Origin: Rhodothermia bacterium
GTDB lineage: Bacteria > Bacteroidota > Rhodothermia > Rhodothermales > JABDKH01
Direction of reading: 5' to 3'
DNA length: 36,907 bases
Assembly: GCA_018679295.1 (NCBI GenBank)
Contig: JAHHLP010000570.1
Location: 1 to 36,907 of the forward strand
Shown: positions 4,023 through 26,757 of the stretch, piece after piece
Layout: every line of letters begins with the position of its first letter
Numbering within the stretch: position 1 is the stretch's first letter
Made by a program: the position numbers and the translations under genes
The notes under the pieces: model-generated
Database searches by the model: none
What the model was told of the DNA's origin: nothing
Seen by the model: the letters and a program-made list of their open reading frames with translations, nothing else

Positions 4023-4205
4023 GGGAGTCCGGCTTGAAGGACGGTTGGCGGTTTTCGGCGGTGCTGCCGAGGCAGATCGCGTCTGGTGGGACAGGACAGC
4101 GCGCCGGAATCACGAATTAGTTGCAGTATCGGCGAAGAGGAGACGAACAAAAGTCAGGAATTTCCGGTGGCAGACGGAAGGCAACTTATCCCTCAGCCAC
4201 TCTGG

Positions 4206-4976: not shown

Positions 4977-5171
4977 TCCCTATCCCTTCGAGGTCAGGAA
5001 AGATACTAACACGATCTTCTCGAAAATGCCGAATGCACGCACCTTTGGTCGGCTTAAGGACTATGTGCCACGGTCGATTTTTTGAGTGTCCGTCCCGGCT
5101 ATTGGTTCCATTCCTGTGCCGCCGACATAATTCCCGCCAGCCACATCAGAATCCGCGCCGGAGAGCCACCG

Positions 5172-8021: not shown

Positions 8022-8410
8022 GCCCGGGGTGACGACATTCGTCATTGCCGCCTCTCCCTGTCATTGCCGCCTCTCCCTGTCATTGCCGCGCAAGCGGCAA
8101 ACCATACCCTCAAACAATCCATGGGCCCCCGGTCAGGCCCGGGGTGACGACATTTGTCATTGCCGCCTCTCCCTGTCATTGCCGCGCAAGCGGTAAACCA
8201 TACCCCTCAAACAACCCATGGGCCCCGGGTCAGGCCCGGGGTGACGACATTCGTCATTGCCGCGCAGCTTGTCCTCGCGACCGCGAAGGGCGGCAATCAG
8301 AGGGCCTAAGGAGCCCGCAGCCTTTGCATGGGCCCCGGGTCAGGCACGGGGTGACGACATTTGTCATTGCCGCGCGGCCTGTCCTCGCGCACGCTGTGGG
8401 CGGAATCCAG
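8021..8410. repeat. Array of four structured intergenic repeat units (REP/MITE-like or structured RNA leader)
   Basis: The 31-nt core GGCCCGGGGTGACGACATT(C/T)GTCATTGCCGC occurs at 8021-8051, 8136-8166, 8233-8263 and 8343-8373 (the last has one extra mismatch). Copies 2-4 are preceded by CATGGGCCCCGGGTCA. Each unit contains hairpins CCCCGGG-tcagg-CCCGGGG and TGACGA-cat-TCGTCA. Copies 1-2 also have TTGCCGC-gcaa-GCGG(C/T)AA. A 19-nt sub-repeat CTCTCCCTGTCATTGCCGC is present twice in copy 1 (8052-8070, 8071-8089) and once in copy 2 (8167-8185). Confidence 0.9.
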
Positions 8411-8456
8411 CGCCTTTCCAGTTAACCCCGAGCCCCTCAATTCCCCGGGAATGCAC

Positions 8457-8485
8457 TTTATCTTCCGTGCCGCCCTCTGTATTAT
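8457..8485 (+). promoter_or_regulatory. Candidate sigma70-type promoter for the downstream secreted-protein locus
   Basis: TTTATC (8457-8462), 17 nt, then TATTAT (8480-8485), about 80 nt upstream of the ATG at 8566. The -35 match is weak, and FCB-group promoters often follow a different consensus, so this is tentative. Confidence 0.2.
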
Positions 8486-8565
8486 CCGTACCAGCATTCA
8501 TCACGCCTTTCTCGGGGCGTACCCCAACGCACGTCTTGAAAACACACAGTGGCCGAAGAGCGCAC

Positions 8566-10746
8566 ATGAAGAGATGGAGATCGGTCTGGCTGGCGATCTG
8601 CCTCTTCACGCTGATGCCGCTGCGATCGCCTGCGCAGTCCTTTGAAGAGGCGGTGATTGACGTCGGTAATGTCGGCGTCACGATCACGAATGCGGGATTC
8701 GTTGGAAAGTCCGCGATTCGCAACAATCCCACCGGACCGCCGTCGTTCGAGTATCCGCTGGACTCAGGTGTGGAGCATCTCTTTGAAGCGGGTCTCTGGA
8801 TAGGCGCGATTCGATCAGATGGGGTCATTACCGTTCGTACCGGCGCCGTTACTGCATCCTCCGGATATACACCCGGCGGCACTGGTTACGAGCTGGCACA
8901 GGCATCCACTATTGTTGAGCGTTCAAGTCTGACGACGGAGGACGCGTTCAGTGCGCTGGCTACAAGTCATCAGGACTTTCTCACTTCATTTGTTGACACG
9001 GCGACCGTCCTTCCCGGCACATTCATCGAGATGCCAGATGTTCAGGGTCAACTTGGAGCGGCGGTAGAAATGCGGTCCTTCGCGTGGAACTTCCCGTTCA
9101 CCGAATACTTCGCGATACTCAATTTCGACATCATCAACATCAGCGACGCTCCCTGGGATAGTGTTTGGGTCGGACTCTACCACGACCTCGTCGTGCGCAA
9201 CGTGAACACCACGCTTGACGCCGGGGGGTCGTTCTTCAATAAGAACGGATTAGGGTGGATCGATAGTCTCGGCGCCTCCTATGCGTTCAACGCAGCCGGG
9301 ACCGAAGAAACTATCAACACGTACGGGGCCATTTCCTTCCTGGGCGCCGAGTGGCGCGATCCAGCAACGGGTCAGCGTCGTTTCTTTCATCCGAACGTTG
9401 CGGAAGATCTCGTCGCCGACGGCTATTCCGCGCCTCGCGTAAACTTCCGCTGGTGGCAGTTCAGCGGCGGCACGGCGGAGTTGAGCCGACCGTCGACCGA
9501 CGACCTCAAGTACCAGCGCCTATCCATCCCCTTCCCAAACCCCAATGCGTTCGAAACCGAGGATGAATACCTAGCGGAGCTCGCCGCCTGGCGTAGCAGG
9601 CTGAGAACGGATGGGCAAACTTCACAGGGGAACTGGATCGGGTTGACGCCCATCGGACCCTTCCCCACCGTTCTGCCCGGCGATACCCTGCAGGTAACCT
9701 ATGGATTGGTGGCCGCGCTCAAACCGGAAGAATTCCAGGGCAACGCCGGAAAACCGATTGATACAGAGGAGTCCCGAGTCTTCCTCGCCAACAACCTGAA
9801 CTGGGCACGTCGTACGTACGCTGGGGAAGACAACAACTTCAATGGCCGGCTCGACGGCAACGAGGATGTGAACTCCAACGGACGGCTCGACCGTTACCTG
9901 ATTCCGGAGCCGCCAAACTCACCGAAGGTTAAGATCGTCTTCGAAGAGCCAGAAGGCTCCGACAATCGACAGACCAATCGCGTCTCGGTCTACTGGGATA
10001 AGACCGCCGAACGATCGCTCGACCCGGTGTCGGGAGATTTCGATTTCGAAGGCTACCGGATTTATCGGAGCGATCCAGGAGACGATCGCGCCGGCAACAT
10101 ACTGGACGAGGCTTCACTCATCGCGCAGTACGACAGACCTGGCAATAGGACCGGGTTCAATAACGGTTTCGCTGACATAGCACTCGCCGAGCCCGTCGTG
10201 TTCCCGGGAGACACGACGCAGTACTGGTACCGATTTGATGCTCCCAGTCTCCTTGGGGGATGGCAATACCTCTTCTCCGTCACAGCATTCGACCAGGGTG
10301 ACCCAGACGCCGGCCTTCCTTCGTTCGAATCTTCTCGCGTATCGAACGCTACGCGCGTTTTTCCCGGTACTCCACCCGTTTCCGACGGCAGTCGCAGCGT
10401 TGGCGTCTACCCGAATCCCTATCGGATCGAGGCGGCATGGGACGGCGGGACATCTCGCACCAGGAAACTGAATTTCTATAACCTGCCTCCCAAGTCAGAA
10501 ATCCGGATTTACACACTGGCGGGCGAAATCGTGGCCGAAATCGACCACGACGCCGAGACATACGTGGGAGACATCCGCTGGTACGACAGCTTTAGCGCGG
10601 AGAATCGTCAACAGCCGGGTGGAGAGCATTCGTGGGATATCCTTTCGGACAACAGCTTGGCGATTTCGGCAGGTCTTTACCTGTATACCGTCAAGGACAT
10701 GGATTCCGGCGAGGTGCAGCGAGGCAAATTTGTTATCATCAAGTAG
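8566..10746 (+). CDS. Secreted protein of unknown function with T9SS-type (FlgD-Ig/Por_Secre_tail-like) C-terminal domain
   Basis: The track ORF begins at 8257 inside the repeat array. The Met at 8566 starts a classic signal peptide (MKRWRSVWLAICLFTLMPLRSPAQS). Tandem DxNxNGRLD loops (DNNFNGRLDGNEDVNSNGRLD). An FN3-like stretch (VSVYWDKT...FEGYRIYRSD). The C-terminus VYPNPYRIE...IRIYTLAGEIVAEI...GLYLYTVKD...KFVIIK resembles a T9SS sorting domain with an insertion. Confidence 0.8.
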   Translation: MKRWRSVWLAICLFTLMPLRSPAQSFEEAVIDVGNVGVTITNAGFVGKSAIRNNPTGPPSFEYPLDSGVEHLFEAGLWIGAIRSDGVITVRTGAVTASSGYTPGGTGYELAQASTIVERSSLTTEDAFSALATSHQDFLTSFVDTATVLPGTFIEMPDVQGQLGAAVEMRSFAWNFPFTEYFAILNFDIINISDAPWDSVWVGLYHDLVVRNVNTTLDAGGSFFNKNGLGWIDSLGASYAFNAAGTEETINTYGAISFLGAEWRDPATGQRRFFHPNVAEDLVADGYSAPRVNFRWWQFSGGTAELSRPSTDDLKYQRLSIPFPNPNAFETEDEYLAELAAWRSRLRTDGQTSQGNWIGLTPIGPFPTVLPGDTLQVTYGLVAALKPEEFQGNAGKPIDTEESRVFLANNLNWARRTYAGEDNNFNGRLDGNEDVNSNGRLDRYLIPEPPNSPKVKIVFEEPEGSDNRQTNRVSVYWDKTAERSLDPVSGDFDFEGYRIYRSDPGDDRAGNILDEASLIAQYDRPGNRTGFNNGFADIALAEPVVFPGDTTQYWYRFDAPSLLGGWQYLFSVTAFDQGDPDAGLPSFESSRVSNATRVFPGTPPVSDGSRSVGVYPNPYRIEAAWDGGTSRTRKLNFYNLPPKSEIRIYTLAGEIVAEIDHDAETYVGDIRWYDSFSAENRQQPGGEHSWDILSDNSLAISAGLYLYTVKDMDSGEVQRGKFVIIK

Positions 10747-10822
10747 CGCTTTCCATGGGCAACGGCACAGGCTCGCTCAGAGCCGACTGAAATCGGAAAT
10801 CAACACAAACACAGAGTACACG

Positions 10823-13033
10823 ATGAAACGTTTCTTTACTGTGAGTCTGACGCTGTTTGCCCTGGCCGTGCTATGGGCTCCGCTAGCGGAGGCTCAAATC
10901 ACGGACATCACGATCCGCGAGATCAACGCGATTCCCGCGGATTCGATAGACGCCCTCAACGCAGCGGCTGAGGCACTCAACGATCCGCGAATCGAGAACG
11001 CCATTTTCAATGATCTCGTCGGCGACACGGTTCGCGTCGGTGCGATCGTCATGAGCGATCCGACACTTTCGGGTCTCTCGTCGCCGGACGGCAGCGGCCT
11101 CCCGAGTCGCGTTCATTTCTTCGTTCGCGATACAGCAGCCGTGTCGCTAGGAGTTGAAGGGATGGGCATTCAGGTCGTGGACGGCTCCTGGCAGGAGAAT
11201 GGCGTCCTAGGGCTTCTGATCGGAGATGTGGTGGAACTGGTCGGCACGGTATCGCCATTTGACGAGGTCATGCAGATCGCGCCCGTCAGTATTACCGTTA
11301 TCGGCACGGTCGGCAGCTTCGATTTTCCGGCCTCCGCCATGGATCCGGTAGTGATAACTACGGCCGACGTACACAGGGTCGTGACGGGTGGTATTCAGGC
11401 CAACTGGAGCAACCTCGCCGACCTCCGCGGCCAGTACGTGCGCTTCGAAAACGCCCTAGTACAGCGCCGCGACATCAGCTCGGACCGGCCAAACTGGACC
11501 TTCAGCACCGATGGGGGTGCGACCCAGCTGTACATCCGCGACATCTCGCTTGCTTATAGGAATGATCGGGACGGCGCCTACGATGACAGTCAGTTCCGCG
11601 TCTTCTTCGACGACTTCACACCCCCTCCTCCAGGGTCGGGCATCAACCTTCAAGGCTTCCTCGCCTTCGACGACTTCGATCCGTTCGGAATTGGCGCGCC
11701 GGATGACGGTCTGATTGCCATCGGACCGATGGAGCGGGAGGACCTGGAAGTGACAGTGACTCCGCCAATTGTCACAAATGTAACCCGGCCGACCACCGTC
11801 GTGGGCGCTGAGACCGTCTCAGTCTCAGCAGACGTGACAGCCGATCCGGCCCGCGCGCTGGCTTCCGTCAACCTCAACTACTACACGAGTGCGGCCCCCG
11901 ACACGGTGACCGTCGCTGGGGTTGTCGCCCCCAACGACACGACATACTCGGCGGACATTCCGGCTCAGTCGGACGGAGACTTCGTGACCTACTGGTTTGA
12001 AGCAACCGACGACCAGAACGCATCGACAGTATCAGAGGACCAGGTCTATCGGGTGCTGACAGGCGGGATTGACTCGATCTCGGACATTCAGCTTACCGTG
12101 GACGGAGGTGAAGGACCTAGCCCCTTCGAAGGCCTGACGACGGCGATGAATATCACGGGGTCTATCAATAGCCGACCGGATTCTTCCGGATACTACATCG
12201 TGCAGGACGACGTCACGGGTGCGCCCTGGACCGGGATCGTCATTGAAGCAACGGACGCGGTGGTAGCCCTTGGGCTTGGACCCGGAGATCTCGTGAACAT
12301 CACCGCCGGCACGATCGTCGAAATTCGGGGAGACAATCGGTTTGATCGGTCCGGTGATGTAACCGGTATCGCCGAACCCACAGTCACGATCGTAACCCCA
12401 GGGGTTGCGGGACAGAACTATAAGACGGTCACGACCGACGTTCTTCAGGACGAGTCGGTGGCAGAAGGTCACGAGAGCATGCTGCTCCGGTTTGAGAACG
12501 TCACCCTGACGACCAACCAGGCCGACGATCCGAGTGACTTCGGTGAGTGGGCGATTTCGTCCGATGGAACAGCCGACAATCAGATTCGGGTCGACGACTC
12601 AAGTCCGCTTGTCTCGTCGAGTTATAACGATGATCTCGTTCCCGGCACCGTCTACTCGTTCCATCAGGGTATATGGTCCAACACCTTTGGCAACTTCAAA
12701 CTGATCCCCGAAGACCTCTCGGATATCGGCGACGTCTCGAACGTGGCCATCGAGAGCGAGGAAATCCCCGATGGATTTGCCCTCGAGCAGAACTATCCGA
12801 ACCCGTTCAACCCGGCGACGACGATCCGGTTTGACGTTGCACAGACGTCTCACATCTCTGTCGAGGTGTTTGACGTGGTGGGACGTCGCGTCGCACAGCT
12901 GGTTGATGGAGAACTGGCTGCGGGCACGCATTCGGTGACGTTCGACGCTCGCAATCTGGCGAGCGGCATGTACGTCTATCGACTGACCGCCGGCTCGGAA
13001 GTGATCAACAAAACCATGATGCTGCTGAAGTAG
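10823..13033 (+). CDS. T9SS-secreted protein with repeated OB-like modules (unknown function)
   Basis: The Met at 10823 gives the signal peptide MKRFFTVSLTLFALAVLWAPLAEAQ; the track ORF start at 10619 overlaps the upstream gene. Canonical T9SS type-A CTD at the C-terminus: LEQNYPNPFNPATTIRFDV...VEVFDVVGRRVA...GMYVYRLTAG...KTMMLLK. Three internal modules are described under findings. Confidence 0.85.
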   Translation: MKRFFTVSLTLFALAVLWAPLAEAQITDITIREINAIPADSIDALNAAAEALNDPRIENAIFNDLVGDTVRVGAIVMSDPTLSGLSSPDGSGLPSRVHFFVRDTAAVSLGVEGMGIQVVDGSWQENGVLGLLIGDVVELVGTVSPFDEVMQIAPVSITVIGTVGSFDFPASAMDPVVITTADVHRVVTGGIQANWSNLADLRGQYVRFENALVQRRDISSDRPNWTFSTDGGATQLYIRDISLAYRNDRDGAYDDSQFRVFFDDFTPPPPGSGINLQGFLAFDDFDPFGIGAPDDGLIAIGPMEREDLEVTVTPPIVTNVTRPTTVVGAETVSVSADVTADPARALASVNLNYYTSAAPDTVTVAGVVAPNDTTYSADIPAQSDGDFVTYWFEATDDQNASTVSEDQVYRVLTGGIDSISDIQLTVDGGEGPSPFEGLTTAMNITGSINSRPDSSGYYIVQDDVTGAPWTGIVIEATDAVVALGLGPGDLVNITAGTIVEIRGDNRFDRSGDVTGIAEPTVTIVTPGVAGQNYKTVTTDVLQDESVAEGHESMLLRFENVTLTTNQADDPSDFGEWAISSDGTADNQIRVDDSSPLVSSSYNDDLVPGTVYSFHQGIWSNTFGNFKLIPEDLSDIGDVSNVAIESEEIPDGFALEQNYPNPFNPATTIRFDVAQTSHISVEVFDVVGRRVAQLVDGELAAGTHSVTFDARNLASGMYVYRLTAGSEVINKTMMLLK

Positions 13034-13055
13034 TCCTTCAGCGTAAGCCGACGCG

Positions 13056-13082
13056 GGAGGTCCTGCCTCGAGCAGGACCTCC
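13056..13082 (+). other. Perfect 11-bp GC-rich stem-loop between two genes of the locus (possible attenuator or RNA stabiliser)
   Basis: GGAGGTCCTGC (13056-13066), loop ctcga, GCAGGACCTCC (13072-13082). It lies 23 nt after the stop at 13033 and 27 nt before the GTG at 13109. No U-tract follows. Confidence 0.5.
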
Positions 13083-13108
13083 GCCGTCGGATCGAATCAG
13101 CTCGCTTA

Positions 13109-14731
13109 GTGAATCGCGTACTCACGTTTCTTCCGATCGTGCTGGCGGCCCTGGTGTTGGGTGCGTGCGATAGCGACATCACCGGATCGCGACTCGACAA
13201 CCTCCCGCCGGATACCCAGCTGTCCGTCCGTGATACGTCATTGACCGACAACCTGGGTGACGACGAACGGCTGACCAGTACTGTCTTCGTTTCGTGGACC
13301 GGCGACGATCCAGACGGCTTCGTCGCAAGCTTCGAGTTCAGGTTCTTTCCGCCGGATAGTGCCCCGGCGAAGGAGGAGGCTTGGTCACTAACAACGAATA
13401 GCGACTCTTTAATACTCCTTCCCATCCCTCCCGGGGAAAAGGAGGCGAACGTGGTCTTTGAGGTCCGGGCAATCGATAACGATGGTTCGGCAGACCCCTC
13501 GCCTGCGAGAACGGTCTTCCCAATTCAGAACTCGCCCCCGGACATCGCATTTCGTCCGTTCGACCTGTCACCCGACACTACATTTGCCGTCTTCTCTTTC
13601 GGTTGGACCGCATCTGATCCCGAAGGCCTCGAAAACCTGGATCGCATCGACGTAAGCCTGAACGACAGTCTTCAATTCGTGTCGCTTCCGCCGGAGACAG
13701 AGTTCGTCACATTTGTCGGCGATGTTGATAAAGGCGATCCCGGCCAGACGACAACAGACGCCCGGGTTTTCCTCGGCCGCGGCTTTCAGACGTCGGGACT
13801 CAGCGTGTCTGGACTCGTCCTTGGAGCCGAAAACACCATCTATATACGCGCGGTTGACCGGACGGACACGACCAGTACCGTTGAGTCCTTCTCCTGGTAC
13901 GTGAAGAAGTCCCGAGGCGAAGTCCTCTACGTTAACGACTACCGCAAGTCTACTTTCCCGACGGTACAGCGCTTTCACCTCGCCTTGCTGCGGGAGTATC
14001 TACCGGATGGCACCGGCATCGATCTGTGGGACATCTCGACACCCTTTGTCAGTGGAAATGCGGGCGACACGCCACGATCGCCACTGATGCCGCCCAGTCC
14101 TGATCCGACGCTAAGGCAGTGGCTCGCTGATTACTCATACATCTATTGGGTTGCCACAAGTACGACGGCGAGCGTGAGTGCAGATAACCTGCCGTTCGTG
14201 GCATCAGCGTCTGATCTCTTTTTTGAGAATGGCGGCAAGATGATGGTCCACAGCCCAATCACGCTGCCGTCCAACCCCGAGGATATCGTTGGCAACCCGG
14301 CTTTGCTGCTTCTGCCGTTGTCAGACCTGATTTCTTTCCCGGATACACTTAGACCGGCGCTAAGGATGGGTGTGGGGGCTGAAATCCCGGCCGCGGATGC
14401 CGTGCCTGGCCTCGGCGTAACCCTTCCCGCTCTTGAATCGAACGCCTTCTTGACGAACACCCTCCCCTACGCCACCGACGGTGCCAACGTGATTCCACTC
14501 GCAACCGGCGAGTACACGTACATCTCCAGAGACGGAAGACGGCAGGGACCGTGGTTCGGGCCGTCCGTAATTGCGTCGCTAAGTGCGGATCAGCGAGTTG
14601 GACTGTTTGCGCTTCCGCTCATCAACGAACAGTCAGGCGCACAGAACTTCGTCGGCGCCGATGGAGACTCTGAAGCGCCTCGCACGGCGATCAAGATGAT
14701 GCTCGAAAGTCTGGGATTTCCGATGCGATGA
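13109..14731 (+). CDS. Lipoprotein of unknown function
   Basis: 540-aa ORF with a GTG start. Signal peptide with lipobox (MNRVLTFLPIVLAALVLGAC|DSD). Two similar N-terminal modules carry W-T-x-x-DP(D/E)G motifs (VSWTGDDPDGFVASFEFRF and SFGWTASDPEGLENLDRIDVS), suggesting Ig-like repeats. No catalytic motif recognised. Confidence 0.75.
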   Translation: MNRVLTFLPIVLAALVLGACDSDITGSRLDNLPPDTQLSVRDTSLTDNLGDDERLTSTVFVSWTGDDPDGFVASFEFRFFPPDSAPAKEEAWSLTTNSDSLILLPIPPGEKEANVVFEVRAIDNDGSADPSPARTVFPIQNSPPDIAFRPFDLSPDTTFAVFSFGWTASDPEGLENLDRIDVSLNDSLQFVSLPPETEFVTFVGDVDKGDPGQTTTDARVFLGRGFQTSGLSVSGLVLGAENTIYIRAVDRTDTTSTVESFSWYVKKSRGEVLYVNDYRKSTFPTVQRFHLALLREYLPDGTGIDLWDISTPFVSGNAGDTPRSPLMPPSPDPTLRQWLADYSYIYWVATSTTASVSADNLPFVASASDLFFENGGKMMVHSPITLPSNPEDIVGNPALLLLPLSDLISFPDTLRPALRMGVGAEIPAADAVPGLGVTLPALESNAFLTNTLPYATDGANVIPLATGEYTYISRDGRRQGPWFGPSVIASLSADQRVGLFALPLINEQSGAQNFVGADGDSEAPRTAIKMMLESLGFPMR

Positions 14732-17700
14732 TTGGCAACGGTAACGACATATTGAAAGCAGCGAAGGCCGGGACAGCCCATCTCATGCGCATCGTCGCAG
14801 TCGTAACGGGATTGTCGGTCCTGGCATTGGGTGGCGTACCCTTTTCAGCGGCCGGGCAGGGCAGCATTGAGGGGGTCGTGTCCGACGAGCAGACTGGCGA
14901 GCCGCTGATTGGTGTGAACGTCATTGTCGTGGGCACATCAAGCGGTGCAGCGACAAACCTCGAGGGCGGTTACTCAATTCCCGGCCTCCGCTCGGGAGAT
15001 TACGCGGTCAAATTTTCATACATCGGATTTGAGACTAAGCTGTTCACAGGTATTAGCGTTACGTCGGGGCAAACGACGCGCCTCAACGTTACCCTCAGTG
15101 AAGCCGTCCTCTCGGCCGAAGACGAGATCGTTATTGTGGGGGATCGACCCCTGCTCGACGTCGAACAGTCGACGAGCACGTTTGCCATCTCCAAGGAGCA
15201 GCTTGAGGTAGCACCCCTGCGCGACGTGCAGGCCGCGGTAGCCACGCAGGTCGGCGTCATTCGGGACCCAACCGGCCTCTACATTCGTGGCGGTCGATCC
15301 GAAGAGACTGGCTTTGTGGTCGACGGCGTTTCAGCGAAGGACCCGCTGGCAGGAACGGGCTTCGGCCTAGACATCGGCTCCAATGCCTTCAGCGAGATCG
15401 AGGTGACCACCGGTGGCGTTGGCGCGGAATTCGGAGACGTGACATCGGGAGTTGTATCCGTTCAAACGCAGGACGGCGGCGATCGATTTTCGGGGTTCTT
15501 CTCGCACAAGCGCGACAACTTCGGGGTCAACGACGATGCGGACTCGAATTTCCAAGAGGACATCTACGAGCTCAATCTCAGTGGTCCGATCGTCAAGGGT
15601 AAGCTGCGGTTCTTCCTGTCGGGCCAGGTGCAGGTATCAGACGGATTCACGCGCGAGACCGCCAACCCGGATCAGGTTTTCTCCTCCCTCGTGGACGGTA
15701 CCTTCTTCATGCCGCGCACCGGAAACCGCTGGAACGGTATCTCCAAACTGACCTACGACGTCGCGCCAGGCAAGAAAGTCCAAGTCTCGTACCAGCGATC
15801 ACTGACGGTCAATCAGAACACGCGGATGCTTCAGGTGACCGGCAACGACGCCGTGGTGTCGCCCGGCTTCCAATACGCATTCGTCCTCTCACCCGAAGAC
15901 GCGAACTCGTTCACGCACGACAACATCATCAGCTATGCCAAGTGGTCGCAAGTCCTGAATGAGCGGTCGTTCTATGACGTCCAGTTGAGTCGGCTCTTTA
16001 CGCGACTCCGCTCCGACGCCAACGGTCGACCGTGGCGACCAGACAACGTCAATACCGAGCTCGATCCAGAAAGCATCGTAGAGTATCCGGCCAACATCTT
16101 TGTGGGTGAAGACGGGCAGCCGATCAATCCCAACGCGCTATTCGTGTTGCCGGGGCCGGGGCTCATCAATAACGGCGGCGTAGCCACGCGCTTCCACGAT
16201 CACTTTGCCGAAGAGTACACAGTTCGGGCTACGTACACGCGGTTTTCCCAATCGAAGAATCATCGGACGACCATCGGCTTCGAGTCCAAGTTCAACGACT
16301 ATCAATGGATAGACATCATCCGGCCGTGGGTGGGAGCTCCGATTGGTGACGACCCCTCCTCGAGTTCGTCTAACAGACTGGGAGAATCTTCCGATATCTG
16401 GCGCGTCAAGCCGAGGCGTGGTGGGCTCTTCGTTACGCACCAAGTCCGGTACCGCGGGCTAATCGGCAACGTGGGTACGCGTATCGAATATTGGGCCCCG
16501 GGCAAGTACGTGGATGATCTTGTCGACGACGAACGCGCCCCGATCCTCGACGCTGTGCGCGAGGCCTACAAAGACGAGACGGTGAAGCTGTTCGGACTGC
16601 GGTACAAGTTCCGCATCCTGCCAAAGATTCGCGTGTCTTTCCCGATTCAGGACAACCGCGTAATGTTCTTTAACTATGGGCACTCCACGCGCATCCCGCA
16701 TCCGACCTTTGTGTACACAGGCCTCGACCCGTTCTTCCAGGATAGAAGTTTCTTTGCCGACCTCGGAAATCCCAACCTCGATCCAGAGGTGGACATCTCG
16801 TATGAACTCGGGCTGCGCAACCAGTTCTCCAGCAATGACGTGCTGAATGTCGCGGCGTTTTGGCGCGATAAGTTTGATTTCATTACGGTTGAGAGCGTCA
16901 TCATTCGGGACGCGACTGGAAGGGAGACGACGCGAGCTTTTCGCGTCAATGGTGACTTTGCCAGAGTCCGTGGCATCGAGGCGAGTTATTTGAAGCGCGT
17001 CGGCGACTGGTTTCAAGGGCAGGTTTCGGGGTCTTTCTCCAGAGCCACCGGCCTGAGCTCAACGAACAATGACGCACTGGCCCAATTCCTGGCGAGAGGC
17101 GACATCGACAATACGTTCGAGACGCCGCTCGCGTGGGATCGTCCATTCGACTTCAAGACCAGCGTCACACTGTCGCATAACCGAAATCGGCCATTCCTCG
17201 GCGTGCCCGGTCTGAACAACCTTAAGGTCTACCTCGCGGGTACGTTCAGAAGCGGACAGCGATACACACCTGTCGAGTTCAGGGGCAATGAAGTGAATCC
17301 ATTCACCGGCGAGCTTGACTGGCGTCCGATCTATGAGCGTAGCCAGGACCCCGAGGATCGCTTCTCTGAAATCGGCGACCCGTGGCTGTGGTTCGACATG
17401 AACATACAGCGCAACGTCGACCTGCTCGGAGGCAGCCTTACGTTCTCGCTGGAAGTCACGAATATCTTCAATCAGAAGAACGCGATTATTGTCAACCCGG
17501 TCACCGGCAAGGCGTACCCGGATGTTGATCCGGAAACGACAGACTTCATTTCACTACGCGGGGACAAAGACTTCGACGTACCGGCGGGCACGCGCGACCC
17601 GCGTTACGAGGATCCGACGACCAGCGGACTGCCTCCCTTCAACCCTGCCCGCTTCCTGCCGCAGCGTCATGTCGTGCTTGGAATATCCTATCGATTCTAA
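14728..17700 (+). CDS. TonB-dependent receptor with N-terminal CarboxypepD_reg-like domain
   Basis: 990-aa ORF. The ATG overlaps the upstream stop (ATGA); an alternative start at 14785 (MRIVAVVTGLSVLALG...) gives a tighter signal peptide. CarboxypepD_reg-like SIEGVVSDEQTGEPLIGVNVIVVGTSSGAATNLEGGYSIPGLRSGDYAVKFSYIGF. Plug-like LYIRGGRSEETGFVVDGVSAKDP. Long alternating beta-strand region ending VVLGISYRF (aromatic C-terminus). Confidence 0.9.
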   Translation: MIGNGNDILKAAKAGTAHLMRIVAVVTGLSVLALGGVPFSAAGQGSIEGVVSDEQTGEPLIGVNVIVVGTSSGAATNLEGGYSIPGLRSGDYAVKFSYIGFETKLFTGISVTSGQTTRLNVTLSEAVLSAEDEIVIVGDRPLLDVEQSTSTFAISKEQLEVAPLRDVQAAVATQVGVIRDPTGLYIRGGRSEETGFVVDGVSAKDPLAGTGFGLDIGSNAFSEIEVTTGGVGAEFGDVTSGVVSVQTQDGGDRFSGFFSHKRDNFGVNDDADSNFQEDIYELNLSGPIVKGKLRFFLSGQVQVSDGFTRETANPDQVFSSLVDGTFFMPRTGNRWNGISKLTYDVAPGKKVQVSYQRSLTVNQNTRMLQVTGNDAVVSPGFQYAFVLSPEDANSFTHDNIISYAKWSQVLNERSFYDVQLSRLFTRLRSDANGRPWRPDNVNTELDPESIVEYPANIFVGEDGQPINPNALFVLPGPGLINNGGVATRFHDHFAEEYTVRATYTRFSQSKNHRTTIGFESKFNDYQWIDIIRPWVGAPIGDDPSSSSSNRLGESSDIWRVKPRRGGLFVTHQVRYRGLIGNVGTRIEYWAPGKYVDDLVDDERAPILDAVREAYKDETVKLFGLRYKFRILPKIRVSFPIQDNRVMFFNYGHSTRIPHPTFVYTGLDPFFQDRSFFADLGNPNLDPEVDISYELGLRNQFSSNDVLNVAAFWRDKFDFITVESVIIRDATGRETTRAFRVNGDFARVRGIEASYLKRVGDWFQGQVSGSFSRATGLSSTNNDALAQFLARGDIDNTFETPLAWDRPFDFKTSVTLSHNRNRPFLGVPGLNNLKVYLAGTFRSGQRYTPVEFRGNEVNPFTGELDWRPIYERSQDPEDRFSEIGDPWLWFDMNIQRNVDLLGGSLTFSLEVTNIFNQKNAIIVNPVTGKAYPDVDPETTDFISLRGDKDFDVPAGTRDPRYEDPTTSGLPPFNPARFLPQRHVVLGISYRF

Positions 17701-18776
17701 TGGTTGGCACCCACGCACATATCACTGTACTTAGCGACGCCCTTCGTTCGCGTCTCGTGAGCGTTCTGACGGCCCACGTCGCGATGGCGCTAATGCTTGC
17801 CGGATCCGTCGTGCCAACCGCTACAGCCCAGATCCTGCCATCGCTCGGCGGTGATCGCGCAGGCACGTCGGGGTTTCAGTTTCTCAAGATCGCGGTTGAT
17901 CCGAGGGGAGCCGCGATGGGAGAATCGGTCGTCGCCAATGCCTCCGACGCTGCCGCTATCTTCTGGAACCCTGCTCTTGCGACAAGGACAGATCGGCTGC
18001 AGGTTGCCGGCAGCCATGTGGCCTACTTTGCCGACATCAATATGGAGTTCGCGGCGGCCGCGTACCGCTTCAGGGGCTCCAACATCGCGCTCGGCCTAAG
18101 CCTTCAAACGCTGACGTCCGGAGACATGGACGTAACGACAGAGTTCCAGCCATTCGGTACTGGCGAGACGTTTCAGTTCAGGGACCTTGCCGCCGGCCTC
18201 ACCTTCGCACAAAGCCTTACGGACCTCTTTAGTTACGGAATCACCTCAAAACTTGTCAGAGAGAGTACGGCCGGCATCTCCACAACGACCGCGGTATTCG
18301 ACGTGGGTGTGCTGTACCGCGTCGGCGACACAGGGGCCAGCATGGGAGTAGTAGTTCGGAACTTCGGAATCGACGGACAACCTTCAGGCAAAATAGACCG
18401 GGTTGTGATCGGCGAAAATCAGGTTGTCACCGAGGACGACTTCGACAACATAACACCGCCGACCACATTCCTTCTCGGCTTTAGCTACAGGATCTTGCAG
18501 AACAGCGCGCGCAGCGACCTGCTTCTGTCCGCACAGCTGAACAACCCCAACGACAACGCGGAGAACTGGAATCTGGGCGTCGAATACACCTGGAGCGACC
18601 TGCTGATTCTGCGCGCGGGTTACAGGTTTGGGATCGAGGAATTCGACGTACCCAGTTTCGGCGTCGGCCTGAACATCCCCTATGCGGGTCCCCACCTTCG
18701 TTTTGATTATGGATTTAACCGGCTGAGCCGCCTGGGATCCGTCCACCGGGTCGGCCTAAACGTGTCTATCAACTGA
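17700..18776 (+). CDS. PorV/PorQ-family (FadL-like) outer-membrane beta-barrel protein
   Basis: 358-aa ORF. Its ATG shares one base with the TAA of the upstream receptor (TAATG). After the signal peptide (...SVVPTATAQ) comes GFQFLKIAVDPRGAAMGESVVANASDAAAIFWNPA, matching my recollection of the PorV N-terminal signature (FL.I..daR...mG.a.vA...Da.a..wNPA). Alternative start at 17784. Confidence 0.8.
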   Translation: MVGTHAHITVLSDALRSRLVSVLTAHVAMALMLAGSVVPTATAQILPSLGGDRAGTSGFQFLKIAVDPRGAAMGESVVANASDAAAIFWNPALATRTDRLQVAGSHVAYFADINMEFAAAAYRFRGSNIALGLSLQTLTSGDMDVTTEFQPFGTGETFQFRDLAAGLTFAQSLTDLFSYGITSKLVRESTAGISTTTAVFDVGVLYRVGDTGASMGVVVRNFGIDGQPSGKIDRVVIGENQVVTEDDFDNITPPTTFLLGFSYRILQNSARSDLLLSAQLNNPNDNAENWNLGVEYTWSDLLILRAGYRFGIEEFDVPSFGVGLNIPYAGPHLRFDYGFNRLSRLGSVHRVGLNVSIN

Positions 18777-18876
18777 GACCTCCTCTTATCATAGCACGCA
18801 GTTTCGATAACGACGATGGTCGTCGATCCTGGTTTGAGCGTGAATCGGGGCGGGACGGCGAAAGACATGCTACCTC

Positions 18877-18899
18877 CGACTCCCTCGGCGCGGGAGTCG
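18877..18899 (+). other. 8-bp GC-rich stem-loop downstream of the PorV-like gene
   Basis: CGACTCCC (18877-18884), loop tcggcgc, GGGAGTCG (18892-18899), inside the 170-nt gap before the next gene. No U-tract, so its function (terminator or processing site) is uncertain. Confidence 0.3.
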
Positions 18900-18946
18900 A
18901 GCACGCGCATGGCGAGTGCGGCCACAACAATAGGCGTATTTGGGGC

Positions 18947-20185
18947 ATGCGACTGCCGACGTTGGCGATGCTCGCGTTTGTGATGGTTTGGACCGGCTGC
19001 GACGGCATCTTCGGTTCCAAGTCCGACGGGACGACTGAAGAGATTTTCGAAGTCGGTCGGCAGGAGCCCGGGCTGTTCAGCGAGGCGGAGTATGTCGCGC
19101 TTGTGCCGTTCTACACGTTGGCCGGCGACGGCCAGCAATTGATGGAGCCGTCCGACGTTTACTTTGGATATGACGAGTTTCTGTATGTAACGGACGCGCG
19201 CGGCCTTCACGTGCTGGATCGGGCGGGTCGGCCGGCTAACTTCATCCCCATAGAAGGCGGAGCGACCTCCGTTATTCAGGATCGAAGGCTCAACGTATAC
19301 GTGACGGCGCGCCGGGACACTTTTCTGAATGGCAGGACCTGGTCGCTTCCGGTCGTGATACGATATGCGAATGTAACCATTGGTACACCCCGCGTGGACC
19401 TGACGCTTTGGCATCCATTCGACGACGACTCACGCAAGTTCAATCTGCCGGATCCACGCGATACCGATGAGTCGGTGGACTTCACCGGCGTGGCCATTCT
19501 GTTCAACAACAACATCTATGTGTCGCGGCGGGGACCGGTGAACAATACGCGGAGCGTCATCCTTCCGCACAACACGGTACTCGAGTTCACTTTCGATGGG
19601 ATCAACACACAGTCGCTGCCGCTAGACCCAAATCGCGAGGGACTTCGCAGCGCGATCAATCCCACCGACGTCATGACGTTCGTACAGCCGCCGCAGGGTG
19701 AATTCTTTCCCTCGAGTAAGCATCTCGCCCTTGCGCAGACTTCCGAGGTAGCCGGGTCGGTTCGATTTGGTGTTCTGTCGCTTTTGGCGAACGTGACACC
19801 CGACGGCATCATCTACGAGCCGGACAGCCGGAAAGTGCAGATAGCTGGCGATACAACACGAGGAGACGGCTTCCTCTATGAGGAGTTCAAGTTCAGTCAT
19901 CCTTCCGACATCACGTTCGCAGGCGACAACACGCAGTACTGGTTTGTCGTCGACCGGGATAAGGACAGCCTCTTTGTGTTCACGGCAAATGGCGTCGAGG
20001 GTGTGGCACCGCCTCCCGGAGCTCGCAGTTCGAAGCCGGTGGTTGTCTCTTTCGGCGGCAATGGCAGCGGCGCCCTTCAATTTGACCGCCCCGAGGGTGT
20101 CGCCTATGGCGATGAGATCGTATATGTGGCCGACACGGGTAATAACCGCGTGTCGCGATTCCGCCTGAACACGGACTTTGAGTGA
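18947..20185 (+). CDS. NHL-repeat (beta-propeller) lipoprotein
   Basis: 412-aa ORF with a lipoprotein signal MRLPTLAMLAFVMVWTGC|DG. NHL-type repeats, e.g. FDRPEGVAYGDEIVYVADTGNNRVSRFRL and MEPSDVYFGYDEFLYVTDARGLHVLDRAG. Confidence 0.8.
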   Translation: MRLPTLAMLAFVMVWTGCDGIFGSKSDGTTEEIFEVGRQEPGLFSEAEYVALVPFYTLAGDGQQLMEPSDVYFGYDEFLYVTDARGLHVLDRAGRPANFIPIEGGATSVIQDRRLNVYVTARRDTFLNGRTWSLPVVIRYANVTIGTPRVDLTLWHPFDDDSRKFNLPDPRDTDESVDFTGVAILFNNNIYVSRRGPVNNTRSVILPHNTVLEFTFDGINTQSLPLDPNREGLRSAINPTDVMTFVQPPQGEFFPSSKHLALAQTSEVAGSVRFGVLSLLANVTPDGIIYEPDSRKVQIAGDTTRGDGFLYEEFKFSHPSDITFAGDNTQYWFVVDRDKDSLFVFTANGVEGVAPPPGARSSKPVVVSFGGNGSGALQFDRPEGVAYGDEIVYVADTGNNRVSRFRLNTDFE

Positions 20186-20208
20186 TCGCGTCGCGTGATC
20201 GTTTGTGT
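20184..20208 (+). terminator. Weak candidate terminator after the NHL lipoprotein gene
   Basis: GATCGCG-tcg-CGTGATC (7-bp stem with one G-U pair) overlaps the TGA stop and is followed by GTTTGTGT. Short stem and tiny loop, so confidence is low. Confidence 0.2.
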
Positions 20209-20304
20209 CGCCGGTCGAAATTGTAATCTTTAGATCGCGCGACGGCGCTGTCACCATCCCAGCCGCGCATTCCCACCTACCGACCTCAACCTATAGCTCA
20301 ACGG

Positions 20305-21513
20305 ATGAACGCTGCATCGAAACTCGCTTGCCTCGTCGGTTGCGCTGCTATGGTCGTGCCCGGAACGCGCGCTCAGTCGATACCCCCGAAGGGCAGTGCT
20401 GGAACGTTTGAGGTTGCCAGTTGGAATGTCGAGTTCTTCGGAGCGGCCGGCGGGCCGAGCGACGACGACAGGCAGATTGCGAACGTTCGAGATGTCATTC
20501 TCGCTTCAAATGTTGACTTGTGGGCGTTTCAGGAGATTGCGGATGAGGCCGACTTTGCGAGTCTCGTAGCCAGCCTCGGTTCGCCGTACGAAAGTCTCAT
20601 CGCACCCACCTCCTCCCGGCAGGGCCTCGGCCTCGCGTACGTGTATAACGCCGACGTAGTTCGGCTCCGTAGCGTAAGAGAAATCCTGACCCAGTTTGCA
20701 TCCGACTTTGCCGGTCGGCCTCCCTTCCAGATGGAGGCCGAGATCGTGCTGCCGGACACGACAGTTGTCGTCACGCTCATCAACCTACATATGAAGGCGC
20801 AGAGTGACCAGGACTCATACGACAAGCGGGCAGCAGCATCGATCCGGCTCAAGAACAACATCGACTTCAGCCTGCTAGCCTCGCGGCCTGTGATCATTCT
20901 CGGCGATTACAACGATCTGCTGCTCAACTCGATTACGTTTCGGCAGCCGTCGCCGTACAAGAACTTCGTCGATGATGTCGGCAACTACGGTACACCGACC
21001 GTGCAAATGCAGATCGACGAACGAAGTACCTTTTGCGGAAGCAGCCCTTCCTGCAACGGATCTACGATCGATCACATCATCGTCACAAACGAAGTGGAGC
21101 CCTGGTACGTAGGGGGTTCGGCGGATCACTACGACGAACTCCTGACGGCTGTCTCCGATTATGTTTTCACGACCTCAGATCACCTTCCCGTCTTGGCGGT
21201 ATTCGACGTCGCTCAGGGAGTGGGAGTTGAAGATCCGGCGACGGCGCAACCGCCTCGCGAAATCCGCGTCGCCGCTTACCCGAATCCTTGGAAGGAGGAT
21301 CTCACTGTAGAAGTAACAACGGATCGTCCAGGACATACCTTCGTGCACCTTTTCGACATAGTCGGTCGAGAGGTTTATTCCGAATTCCTCCATCTCCCCA
21401 CTGCGGGGACCTACGGTCTCAAGATCGCGCTGCCACGACTCCCGTCCGGTGTCTACATGTTGTCATCGCGCGGTCCGCTCGGAGAGGATTCGCGGTTGAT
21501 CGTTCGTCCGTGA
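20305..21513 (+). CDS. Endonuclease/exonuclease/phosphatase (EEP, DNase I-like fold) family protein with T9SS C-terminal sorting domain
   Basis: 402-aa ORF with the signal peptide MNAASKLACLVGCAAMVVPGTRAQS. EEP motifs in order: VASWNVEFFG, LWAFQEI, NLHMKA, IILGDYND, IDHIIVT, SDHLPVLAVF. C-terminal CTD: AAYPNPWKEDLTVEV...HLFDIVGREV...GVYMLSS...LIVRP. Confidence 0.85.
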   Translation: MNAASKLACLVGCAAMVVPGTRAQSIPPKGSAGTFEVASWNVEFFGAAGGPSDDDRQIANVRDVILASNVDLWAFQEIADEADFASLVASLGSPYESLIAPTSSRQGLGLAYVYNADVVRLRSVREILTQFASDFAGRPPFQMEAEIVLPDTTVVVTLINLHMKAQSDQDSYDKRAAASIRLKNNIDFSLLASRPVIILGDYNDLLLNSITFRQPSPYKNFVDDVGNYGTPTVQMQIDERSTFCGSSPSCNGSTIDHIIVTNEVEPWYVGGSADHYDELLTAVSDYVFTTSDHLPVLAVFDVAQGVGVEDPATAQPPREIRVAAYPNPWKEDLTVEVTTDRPGHTFVHLFDIVGREVYSEFLHLPTAGTYGLKIALPRLPSGVYMLSSRGPLGEDSRLIVRP

Positions 21514-21568
21514 GTTCAGGGCTGGCCGCTCCAGTCGGCAACAGCAATCGGTTGCCAACAAAAAGAAA

Positions 21569-21594
21569 GCCCCGGCCTGGGAAGTGGCCGGGGC
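21569..21594. terminator. Intrinsic terminator hairpin between convergent genes (U-tract on the minus-strand side)
   Basis: GCCCCGGCC (21569-21577), loop tgggaagt, GGCCGGGGC (21586-21594). It is preceded on the plus strand by AACAAAAAGAAA, which reads as a T-rich tail on the minus strand after the gene ending at 21641. It also lies 56 nt after the plus-strand stop at 21513. Confidence 0.75.
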
Positions 21595-21640
21595 TGATCA
21601 ACACCATCTTGTTGGCATCAGGTGGCTTTGAAAGGGAGAA

Positions 21641-21829
21641 TCAGTTGTCGGTGGTCTTCTGGTTGTATTCGAACCAGATCAGCATGGCGTCAACGTGCTT
21701 CCCGAAGGGGCATCCTGCCTCGCGGTACTCGTCCAGCGCCGTTCTGAAAAAAGTCGATAGGAAACGGCGAAGATGCGGCGTGTTTCCACGCTGCGTACTG
21801 CTCGGCTGGCCGTGATTCTCGTTGGTCAT
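21641..21829 (-). CDS. Small hypothetical protein (62 aa)
   Basis: ATG preceded by AGGAGAGC. Third-codon positions are GC-rich like the neighbouring genes. It is followed by the terminator hairpin at 21569-21594. No motif recognised. Confidence 0.5.
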   Translation of the reverse strand: MTNENHGQPSSTQRGNTPHLRRFLSTFFRTALDEYREAGCPFGKHVDAMLIWFEYNQKTTDN

Positions 21830-22023
21830 GCTCTCCTCTACAGGATTCTCGTCGATTCTCCTACCTGTAATCGGCGTGCGAGGGGATTTCTATAGCCGAA
21901 GAAGAAGCCCCAAAACCGGCAAATGAGGCGGCGCCTCGCCATCGATCTTCATCGACCACGAAGCGCCGCAACCGGTCGCTGAAAGGGGGACAGCGACGTT
22001 CCCAAGGCTGATTTTGGCCTGTA

Positions 22024-22557
22024 TCAGTCGTCAGCCAACTGGAAGTAGTTCTTCACCGCCTCATAATTGGTCAGATCCACTTCGGATTTTCCAAACGGGA
22101 AGCCGTCAATTATTACCGCCTTCATCTCGCGGTCCGGCATGTTCTCGAGCGCAATCCCTTCCGCGGAGGCTTCGTAAAAGACCTCCAGAAAGCCGTCGTC
22201 AAAGCCGAATCCGAGCGTTACGATGAAGTCGACTGCCTGCTGTTCCGGATTATCGAATCCGAACGTATAAGGCATCGCCGTCCACGTTCCCTGCTCGCGG
22301 AAGAAGACGAGCACCGCGCCTTCGTCTACAACAGTCGGGGTAATTCCCGGTACATCATACTGGACCGATGCGACCTTGCCGTTGATGATGGCATCCGCCA
22401 TCAGAAAGTCAAAGCTGACGGTGAATACGTTGGCGTTTCCGTCTGCTCCGCGCGGTCCCGGAGGTCCAGGAGGGCCTTGCTCGACGACGGTTGTCTCGCA
22501 TGCGCTCAACAACGCAAGGAAGAGAATTCCTAGTAAGCTGGTCGTTATCGTTTTCAT
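22024..22557 (-). CDS. Lipoprotein with short collagen-like (G-X-Y) repeat
   Basis: The Met at 22557 gives MKTITTSLLGILFLALLSAC|ETT (lipobox LSAC), followed by GPPGPPGPRGADG and a ~140-aa C-terminal domain. The track ORF start at 22605 adds 16 non-signal residues and is less likely. Confidence 0.75.
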   Translation of the reverse strand: MKTITTSLLGILFLALLSACETTVVEQGPPGPPGPRGADGNANVFTVSFDFLMADAIINGKVASVQYDVPGITPTVVDEGAVLVFFREQGTWTAMPYTFGFDNPEQQAVDFIVTLGFGFDDGFLEVFYEASAEGIALENMPDREMKAVIIDGFPFGKSEVDLTNYEAVKNYFQLADD

Positions 22558-26731: not shown

Positions 26732-26757
26732 TGCGGGTTGGCGTAAGGGCCGGCGGC

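Follow-up and report, generated by a model that had tools for sequence, protein, structure and literature searches.

Which surface function is served by seven neighboring genes for exported proteins that include a TonB-dependent transporter, a PorV-like barrel and cargo proteins of a type IX secretion system (T9SS)? This question is raised by positions 8566-21513 of contig JAHHLP010000570.1 (assembly GCA_018679295.1) of a Rhodothermia bacterium, which was analyzed over its whole length of 36,907 nt (in the following, the window). A first-pass annotation had seen in these genes the logic of a polysaccharide utilization locus (PUL) without its usual components, and had put forward a surface machine for capture, degradation and uptake of extracellular nucleic acid or another polymer. 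Judged by gene order, the first six genes (g1 to g6) are an outer-membrane operon collinear in at least three bacterial phyla, a real unit and not a chance arrangement. As to its function, we favor a T9SS-assembled, TonB-dependent surface machine which would capture extracellular nucleic acid, cleave it and import it; g1 would sit docked on g5, and g3 and g6 would serve as accessory lipoproteins. We give this reading about an even chance of being right.

TonB-dependent uptake of polymers in Bacteroidota is understood almost entirely via SusC/SusD with lipoprotein partners, and the sister phyla are largely unknown in this respect. The present locus suggests another solution, in which surface partners would be delivered by type IX secretion and docked on a PorV paralogue; a role of this kind for the PorV/PorQ family outside secretion is undescribed in the sources searched. 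In the sediments, the hot springs and the ocean that these lineages inhabit, extracellular DNA, the likely substrate, makes up a large store of phosphorus, nitrogen and genetic information. So far, a TonB-dependent system for DNA is known experimentally from gut Bacteroidales only (2025), and one has been implicated in the competence of Riemerella (2021). In Bacteroides thetaiotaomicron, ddbABCDEF is needed for the depletion of exogenous DNA and encodes the transporter DdbC, the DUF5689 lipoprotein DdbD, which was modelled as DNA-binding partner, and three nucleases (PMC12478041). The Riemerella anatipestifer homologues of DdbC and DdbD, RA0C_RS04915 and RA0C_RS04920, have been called essential parts of the natural-transformation machinery (PMC12478041). 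RA0C_RS04915 is a CarboxypepD_reg protein that was struck three times in a transformation-null screen, and RA0C_RS04920 contains DUF5689 and DUF5017 (PMC8459023). The earlier statement that the window locus has no characterized counterpart is outdated: in ddbABCDEF (PMC12478041) and in RA0C_RS04915/04920 (PMC8459023), secreted nucleases occur together with a DUF5689 protein and a transporter of the TonB-dependent type.

Layout of the locus

The seven genes and their products are as follows.

g1, 8566-10746, plus strand: 726-aa exported protein, fold family unassigned
g2, 10823-13033, plus strand: T9SS cargo protein with two OB-like modules of the DUF5689 / ExeM-NucH type
g3, 13109-14731, plus strand: lipoprotein that has two FN3-like domains and, C-terminally, an alpha/beta domain
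g4, 14728-17700, plus strand: TonB-dependent transporter
g5, 17700-18776, plus strand: 14-strand outer-membrane barrel of the FadL/PorV type, paralogue within the PorV/PorQ family
g6, 18947-20185, plus strand: lipoprotein with an NHL-repeat beta-propeller
g7, 20305-21513, plus strand: T9SS-secreted EEP (DNase I-fold) phosphodiesterase, accessory seventh gene

Recomputation confirmed the seven open reading frames (ORFs) and the gaps of 76, 75, −4, −1, 170 and 119 nt between them. The −4 overlap of g3 and g4 hinges on the start chosen for g4: homologues of g4 align from residue 18-40 onwards, and an in-frame ATG at 14785, which is probably the true start, would leave a gap of +53 nt after g3, like that in other genomes. 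The export signals could be read by eye in the translations, with the lipoboxes LGAC (g3) and WTGC (g6) and with N-terminal hydrophobic signals ending in AQ. Sorting domains for type IX secretion had been assigned to three products. For g2 this assignment is clear, for g7 it is borderline, and g1 ends in a divergent tail that resembles a T9SS C-terminal domain (CTD) and has no match in Pfam or TIGRFAM.

Conservation of a six-gene unit across phyla

One genome per GTDB species was scanned with a g3 alignment, which gave 79 loci, and all seven proteins were compared with these loci by tblastn (loci are numbered with the prefix L). The order g1-g6 is kept in about 60 Rhodothermales loci, which is every one with enough sequence (L001-L073), and also in Ignavibacteria and Chlorobi bacterium OLB5 (L075, L076, L078-L080) at identities of 25-43%. 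The same six genes in the same order were found around four distant full-length homologues of g1, two of them in Marinimicrobia (L082, L085), one on an unassigned metagenome contig (L083) and one in a metagenome-assembled genome of Bacteroidota (L084). Three loci with g3-like sequences and without the other cluster genes (L074, L077, L081) were set aside. Because this order persists while the flanking genes vary between all loci inspected, g1-g6 is regarded as the conserved unit. Synteny had been named beforehand as the test on which the idea of a common system could fail, and the gene order turned out to be strongly conserved across phyla. The view of a seven-gene locus is thus modified: all seven genes are real and collinear in the window, but the EEP gene is accessory to a unit of six. 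It comes after g6 in 33 of 46 loci, counting those whose sequence continues downstream for 1.5 kb or more.

The members of the unit differ in their rate of change. Leaving aside the near-identical relative L003 and one partial g2 match, identities within the Rhodothermales are 62-83% for g4 and 48-80% for g1, so that g1, g4 and likewise g5 are conserved at housekeeping level, while g2 (30-50%) and g7 (36-50%) evolve faster. Across phyla, g4 retains 29-42% identity, and g1 has 40-42% to the Ignavibacteria proteins. Every nearest relative of g1 and of g3 is a 'hypothetical protein' from Rhodothermales; among the cultured hosts are Rhodothermus marinus, R. profundi, Rhodocaloribacter litoris and Roseithermus sacchariphilus.

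Some loci contain additional sequence. In L001 (Rhodothermaceae bacterium KatS3mg044), a gene for a 142-aa protein with matches to 23S_rRNA_IVP / bAvd-like four-helix bundles lies between g2 and g3 (14582-15010). About 1.9 kb of extra sequence separates g1 and g2 in the Rhodothermales loci L028, L029 and L057, and an 805-aa ORF is located between g6 and the EEP gene in L055 (16865-19282). Beside the Marinimicrobia cluster of L085, a second CarboxypepD_reg/Plug transporter is paired on the minus strand (3936-9604) with a protein carrying Golvesin_C and Por_Secre_tail, a further case of a transporter coupled with T9SS cargo.

Transporter g4 and barrel g5

The earlier assignments of g4 and g5 are confirmed by profile scores. 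In Pfam, g4 passes the cut-offs and matches CarboxypepD_reg (PF13620, E 1.4e-18), Plug (PF07715, E 2e-08, 35.1 bits at a cut-off of 23.9) and OMP_b-brl_3 (PF14905, E 2.3e-13, 50.4 bits at a cut-off of 27). A strand with the motif EE(I/V)VV(V/I)GE precedes the plug and is conserved, together with the plug motifs, in all phyla. By comparison with SusC-like transporters in general, this strand is the presumed TonB box. The score against the SusC/RagA model TIGR04056 is 63.1 bits and stays below the cut-off of 368.25. By its plug, barrel and TonB-box-like strand, g4 is a TonB-dependent transporter.

The g5 product scores 182.8 bits against the PorV/PorQ family model NF033709 (cut-off 90) and matches PorV in the PDB (6h3i_F, E 7e-5). 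It reaches neither the PorV equivalog NF033710 (65.7 bits, cut-off 250) nor the PorQ equivalog NF033711 (98.4 bits, cut-off 220) and is therefore considered a paralogue, not the housekeeping PorV or PorQ. In all loci, the g5 gene is located directly behind the transporter gene, which it overlaps in the window.

As noted before, the locus has a PUL-like logic, yet Pfam and NCBIfam profile scans gave no match to a SusD, glycosidase or peptidase family among the seven proteins.

OB-like modules of g2

The g2 product consists of a first module (about aa 22-330, nt 10886-11812), an Ig-like domain, a second module (about aa 445-650, nt 12155-12772) and a type A sorting domain (aa 658-731, nt 12794-13015), which is recognized by Por_Secre_tail (PF18962, E 8e-10, 39.3 bits at a cut-off of 27) and TIGR04183 (39.1 bits at a cut-off of 23). 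The first-pass annotation had described OB-like modules in this protein, and both can now be placed as homologous to the N-terminal domains of DUF5689 / ExeM-NucH proteins: in hhalign comparisons with the DUF5689 domain of Ignavibacteria PLD proteins, module 1 reached a probability of 98% (E 3e-13) and module 2 one of 97.6% (E 2.9e-12). A profile of g2 orthologues matches, with module 2, residues 11-231 of the EEP proteins in PDB entries 9sf9/9sf8, which is their non-catalytic N-terminal domain. The OB-fold family PF01336 was matched by 7 of 25 g2 orthologues, and an Ignavibacteria orthologue matched the ExeM/NucH model NF033681 at positions 34-215 of 546 (E 1.4e-12, 47.3 bits at a cut-off of 300). 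The relation to ExeM/NucH is one of domains and does not extend to the full-length family, as g2 has no catalytic domain and g7 no match to NF033681. The Pfam model of DUF5689 itself had no match in the g2 orthologues scanned, and searches of the PDB with g2 or g7 as single sequences or with the DUF5689 alignment gave nothing useful. Against the models of the attachment complex, g2 scored 19.7 bits, below the cut-off of 420 and in its CTD only. The homology of the modules to DUF5689 provides the link to DNA, as this is the domain of DdbD and RA0C_RS04920 (PMC12478041, PMC8459023).

The Ig-like domain of g2 resembles that of PPAD. Binding of glycans by g2 was considered and rejected: the CBM_56 matches fall on the central Ig-like domain and are weak, with one barely at the cut-off.

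Two nuclease folds in the seventh slot

The assignment of g7 to the EEP enzymes is corroborated by its match to Exo_endo_phos (E 1.3e-14). Residues N41, E77, D201/N203 and D292/H293 are invariant in 25 g7 orthologues, and we read them as the EEP catalytic set. Its CTD is at the limit of recognition, with 27.1 bits for Por_Secre_tail (cut-off 27) and 22.1 bits for TIGR04183 (cut-off 23).

A NucT-like PLD protein occupies the slot behind g6 instead in each of the four Ignavibacteria loci and in L082 of Marinimicrobia. The full-length Ignavibacteria proteins combine an N-terminal DUF5689/OB domain with FN3, a T9SS sorting domain and two PLDc_2 domains. The L082 gene runs off its locus and matches OB-fold, Pur_ac_phosph_N and PLDc_2. 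In NCBIfam, the Ignavibacteria proteins had nuclease NucT and the N-terminal domain of ExeM/NucH as their best named matches, and cardiolipin synthase appeared as one marginal match. For g2 and the PLD proteins alike, domains are shared with these families without membership, all scores lying far under the cut-offs (47 bits at 300, 44 at 297). Secreted nucleases are thus present at domain level, as EEP in g7 and as PLD in the sister clusters. Because two unrelated phosphodiesterase folds, both of them T9SS cargo, share one slot, a phosphodiester polymer, most simply nucleic acid, is suggested as substrate, and this swap of folds is the strongest contextual argument for a polymer of this kind.

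The proteins g1, g3 and g6

Within g1, a conserved N-terminal domain, a DxDxDG linker of the Ca-binding type, an FN3-like domain and the CTD-like tail (aa 614-726, nt 10405-10743) were distinguished. The tail matches the C-terminus of PorZ weakly (E 0.005) and aligns in hhalign end-to-end with the g2 CTD, with two insertions (E 6e-5, probability 65%). It is probably a divergent, insertion-bearing CTD-like domain. Unlike ordinary sorting domains, it belongs to the best conserved segments of g1 between phyla. As a whole, g1 stays below the PorZ model NF052228 (15.2 bits, cut-off 260), and no equivalent of the attachment-complex proteins PorZ and PorU (NF052228, NF033707) was found in the locus. 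A profile search of the PDB with g1 gave no match. Its AlphaFold model has a pLDDT of 64.6, with the N-terminal 140 residues predicted poorly, and Foldseek against the PDB returned generic FN3/Ig folds at low TM-scores.

The g1 family is large, with 1853 clusters at 50% identity in an exhaustive HMMER search (E up to 1e-3), and includes Candidatus Marinimicrobia and Zixibacteria. Searching with an alignment of g1 from two phyla put the same 120 Rhodothermales proteins at the top and added no distant relative with a name. The N-terminal domain (aa 25-454) also occurs at the end of a giant metagenomic protein (P0291, 1688 aa) that carries a canonical T9SS sorting domain besides six PKD-like repeats, and thus behaves as a mobile surface module. 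As this domain is fused elsewhere to canonical CTDs, g1 is itself regarded as T9SS cargo.

More distant g1-like proteins share the N-terminal motif and the last approximately 175 residues with g1. In three of five loci with such genes (L087, L088, L090), a CarboxypepD_reg/Plug transporter is encoded upstream and a PorV-like barrel downstream; L089 and L091 have no recognizable partners. In L087 (4545-14200), the order transporter, exbB, exbD, exbD, tonB, g1-like gene (1096 aa) and PorV-like barrel was found, in which a self-contained TonB system is embedded in the triad, and energized transport is argued from this arrangement. Since the triad of transporter, g1-like protein and PorV-like barrel recurs, it suggests that g1, g4 and g5 are the mechanical core of the unit. 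L088 and L090 belong to a second subfamily, and the next gene after the triad in L088 (13680-15503) and L090 (11633-13405) encodes a protein of about 600 aa, conserved in length and without a Pfam family, which may be a fourth component.

The lipoprotein g3 continues after its lipobox LGAC with CDSD, and these acidic residues following the lipid cysteine would correspond to the surface-export signal of Bacteroidota (PMC12478041, PMC12578637). The AlphaFold model of g3 has a pLDDT of 78.5, and its Foldseek matches are limited to tandem FN3 domains; orthologues adjoin the transporter on the upstream side in all loci. In g6, the NHL repeat was detected with E 1.1e-7 and recurs in 23 of 23 orthologues, a few of which also show weak arylesterase, SGL and phytase-like propeller matches. 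Its position is kept in all phyla examined.

Proposed mechanism

According to the favored reading, g1, g2 and g7 would cross the outer membrane via the T9SS. The CTD-like tail of g1, and possibly the CTD of g2, would then stay bound to g5 as a dedicated PorV/PorQ paralogue, whereby the cargo would be parked beside g4, in the way PorZ sits on PorQ and PorU on PorV. The two OB modules of g2 would capture the polymer, which would be cut by the secreted phosphodiesterase, an EEP enzyme in the window and, in other phyla, a PLD nuclease like NucT. The fragments would be drawn through g4 with energy from TonB, and the lipoproteins g3 and g6 would be the remaining parts of the complex, in the role of a lid, a scaffold or a further esterase. 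Within this sequence of steps, we infer the physical complex and the docking of the g1 tail on g5 by analogy; DNA is the presumed substrate on grounds of domain content, and imported DNA might be used as a nutrient or for transformation.

The earlier nucleic-acid hypothesis gains support from the exchange of g7 for a PLD nuclease and from the DUF5689-type modules, and it is weakened by the composition of g2. This protein is very acidic (pI 4.05, net charge −69) with few conserved basic residues, which is unusual for a DNA binder; the Ignavibacteria orthologue, unlike the acidic window protein, has a pI of 8.66. Several further points also count against a DNA uptake machine. OB-like domains can bind sugars too, and the central Ig domain has the weak CBM_56 matches in 6 of 25 orthologues. 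Nine Rhodothermales loci, as well as L083-L085, have no nuclease gene beside the cluster. The EEP sequence does not specify a substrate, and profile searches against solved EEP structures gave marginal matches (EEPD1, E about 1e-3). The likeness of g4 to DdbC (WP_008762511.1) and RA0C_RS04915 lies in the common CarboxypepD_reg architecture alone, so that g4 may be a homologue or an analogue. Conservation of g1 and g4 at housekeeping level, for g4 at the 62-83% given above within the order, is unusual for nutrient-specific uptake. Finally, g1 and g3, a third of the core, match no Pfam (E up to 1) or NCBIfam model and have no assignable function.

A more general form of the proposal is that the locus is the best-preserved representative of an unrecognized class of machines for uptake, found in FCB phyla other than Bacteroidia (Rhodothermota, Ignavibacteriota, Marinimicrobia and relatives). 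Here, a transporter would work with a dedicated PorV paralogue, and this barrel would permanently hold a T9SS-delivered protein of the g1 family by its specialized CTD, as a functional substitute for the SusD lid or the surface lipoproteins of Bacteroidia. The machine of this subfamily would be the version specialized for extracellular DNA, perhaps even the route by which DNA enters through the outer membrane in these phyla, and would join type IX secretion directly to TonB-dependent import. We put this forward as a tentative idea with the balance of chances against it.

Alternative explanations

The alternative that survives best, although we consider it unlikely, keeps the architecture and changes the substrate to a glycan, a teichoic-acid-like polymer, phospholipid head groups or organic phosphate, with the nuclease-type genes as loose neighbors. 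It would account for the persistence of the six-gene core in the nuclease-free loci named above and for the acidity of g2. OB stands for oligonucleotide or oligosaccharide binding, and the CBM_56 matches in the central domain of g2 would fit the latter; the g6 propeller has weak arylesterase, phytase-like and PhoX-type matches, and the EEP and PLD superfamilies include phospholipases and phosphatases. However, the OB modules of g2 are specifically of the DUF5689 / ExeM-NucH kind that accompanies DNases and the Ddb and Riemerella DNA systems, the PLD proteins have NucT as best named match and cardiolipin synthase only once and marginally, and none of the members matched a CAZyme, peptidase or lipase family.

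A natural-transformation gate is improbable in our estimation. By this account, the locus would be an outer-membrane entry for DNA like Riemerella RA0C_RS04915/RA0C_RS04920, and captured double-stranded DNA would be trimmed by the surface nuclease and threaded via the transporter to competence proteins of the periplasm and inner membrane that are encoded elsewhere. RA0C_RS04915 and the DUF5689 protein RA0C_RS04920 are tied to transformation in Riemerella (PMC8459023, PMC12478041). The replacement of g7 in other phyla is NucT-like, and the near-housekeeping conservation of g1 and g4, in single copy per locus examined, fits a core function better than a nutrient system. NucT of H. pylori has been implicated in transformation. 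Against this stand the lack of comEC, comEA, comF and dprA in or beside the cluster in any locus inspected, the resemblance of g4 to RA0C_RS04915 in CarboxypepD_reg architecture alone, and an endonuclease-rich surface that would destroy transforming DNA. Neither Rhodothermales nor Ignavibacteria are known to be naturally competent, which also speaks against a gate of this kind.

Very improbable is a housekeeping envelope or T9SS accessory complex, such as an alternative attachment or surface-layer assembly with the barrels as structural platforms and without import: it would suit the very high conservation of g1, g4 and g5, the occurrence of the cluster across FCB lineages, the PorV/PorQ membership of g5, FadL-type barrels that can be pure platforms, e.g. 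BamG (PMC12578637), and the missing enzymatic or binding signature of g1 and g3, but g4 retains its TonB-box-like strand, along with the motifs of the plug, in every phylum, the paralogous cluster L087 embeds exbB-exbD-exbD-tonB, the locus holds no equivalent of sortase, PorZ or PorU (g1 with 15 bits at the PorZ cut-off of 260), and the recurrent secreted nucleases and nuclease-type OB domains would be left unexplained.

If the DNA uptake machine is real, it would be a conserved, deeply branching relative of the known DNA systems, and its principle would be ancient and widespread. With Rhodothermus marinus as cultured host, the six-gene unit is a target for the function of two large unannotated families, of which the g1 family has the 1853 clusters mentioned above.

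Flanking elements and neighboring genes

Upstream, the first-pass annotation had taken a repeat array as the boundary of the locus. The array exists, at 8028-8415 between a hybrid histidine kinase gene and g1, but it is absent from the related loci and lies outside the conserved system. TRF reported periods of 19, 97 and 110 nt within 8041-8415. A 24-nt core, GGTGACGACATTYGTCATTGCCGC, which includes the palindrome TGACGA-N3-TCGTCA, occurs four times (expected 0) with copies 97-115 nt apart, and a 19-nt sub-repeat is present in 2.6 copies at 8041-8089. The array is missing from all 85 related loci (L001-L085), even from the closest relative L003 (89-94% identical). It is genome-specific, possibly an element of the REP type or an array of operators.

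Downstream, a terminator hairpin had been proposed to close the locus.

hairpin, 21568-21595, minus strand: GC-rich, 55 nt past g7, U-tract on the minus strand

The hairpin is real (dG −37 kcal/mol, z −3.6), but its T-run lies on the minus strand and it is therefore assigned to a convergent 62-aa ORF (minus strand, 21641-21829), for which the hairpin at 21595-21568 followed by TTCTTTTTGT has the form of a canonical intrinsic terminator. For the plus-strand locus it would be a bidirectional stop at best. An Rfam scan of 7900-22100 gave no match.

Two hybrid histidine kinases are encoded upstream (5082-8021 and 2757-4022), one of which, with 979 aa and a receiver domain, stands directly before the array. 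Sensor kinases are also found upstream in L001 and not in L002, and a regulatory link is unproven. On the minus strand, 22818-33017 of the window encode an SbcC-like ATPase, an SbcD-like metallophosphoesterase, an AddA-like UvrD helicase-nuclease and an AddB-like PD-(D/E)XK protein. A functional tie of the SbcCD-like and AddAB-like genes and of the hybrid histidine kinase to the locus was rejected, since flanks vary among genomes. As this neighborhood is not conserved in other genomes, the closeness of DNA-repair-type genes to a putative DNA-uptake locus looks like coincidence.

Comparison with known systems

Within the favored reading, the locus would be an analogue of the Bacteroidales ddbABCDEF loci, for which we see roughly equal chances for and against. 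In both, the presumed DNA binder is an OB protein of the DUF5689 type, a likeness that g2 shows in profile-profile comparison and not with the Pfam model; both encode secreted nucleases, EEP-fold enzymes among them, and both have PUL-like logic without SusD or CAZymes. They differ in that the DUF5689 modules stand in tandem in the T9SS cargo g2, whereas Ddb has a lipoprotein encoded adjacent to the transporter; g2 is no lipoprotein, and g3 stands between g2 and g4. Furthermore, the nuclease of the window carries a T9SS sorting domain, and g1, g3, g5 and g6 have no Ddb counterpart. The present unit occurs in Rhodothermota, Ignavibacteriota and Marinimicrobia, in contrast to Bacteroidia and Flavobacteriia for the Ddb and Riemerella systems.

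SusC/SusD PULs, with their utilisome complexes, likewise have an N-terminally extended transporter co-encoded with surface binding proteins and degrading enzymes. In contrast to these, the locus contains no SusD-like protein, g4 fails the SusC/RagA model, and the partners are partly T9SS cargo; carbohydrate-active enzymes (glycoside hydrolase, lyase and esterase families) were found neither in the window proteins nor in the orthologues scanned. With ExeM/NucH, the OB-like N-terminal domain is shared by g2 and by the PLD proteins of the sister clusters, but g2 has two OB modules and no catalytic domain.

In the T9SS attachment complex, PorZ is held by PorQ and PorU by PorV, and complexes of PorV with cargo CTDs are available as PDB entries 6h3i, 8glj and 8glk. 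A 14-strand FadL/PorV barrel encoded with CTD-bearing surface proteins is common to this complex and the locus, and is the source of the docking idea. However, g5 remains under the equivalog cut-offs, g1 is not PorZ, and a PorU sortase is missing here; moreover, the attachment complex has no TonB-dependent transporter, whereas g5 is paired with one. BamG, a FadL-type barrel of the Bacteroidota BAM complex, is a platform for surface lipoproteins (PMC12578637). As in BamG-BamH, a FadL-family barrel would be the platform beside another barrel; the partner here is a TonB-dependent transporter and not BamA, BAM components are absent, and g5 is of the PorV/PorQ type. A literature search for PorV-like barrels with TonB-dependent transporters yielded only BAM papers and a T9SS review, and none for Rhodothermus.

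Each kind of component is thus already known, and so is a DNA-utilization locus built on a TonB-dependent transporter. New, in the sense of undescribed in the literature searched, is their combination, in which a transporter gene overlapped by the gene of a PorV paralogue occurs with T9SS-delivered partners in a six-gene unit that extends across several FCB phyla.

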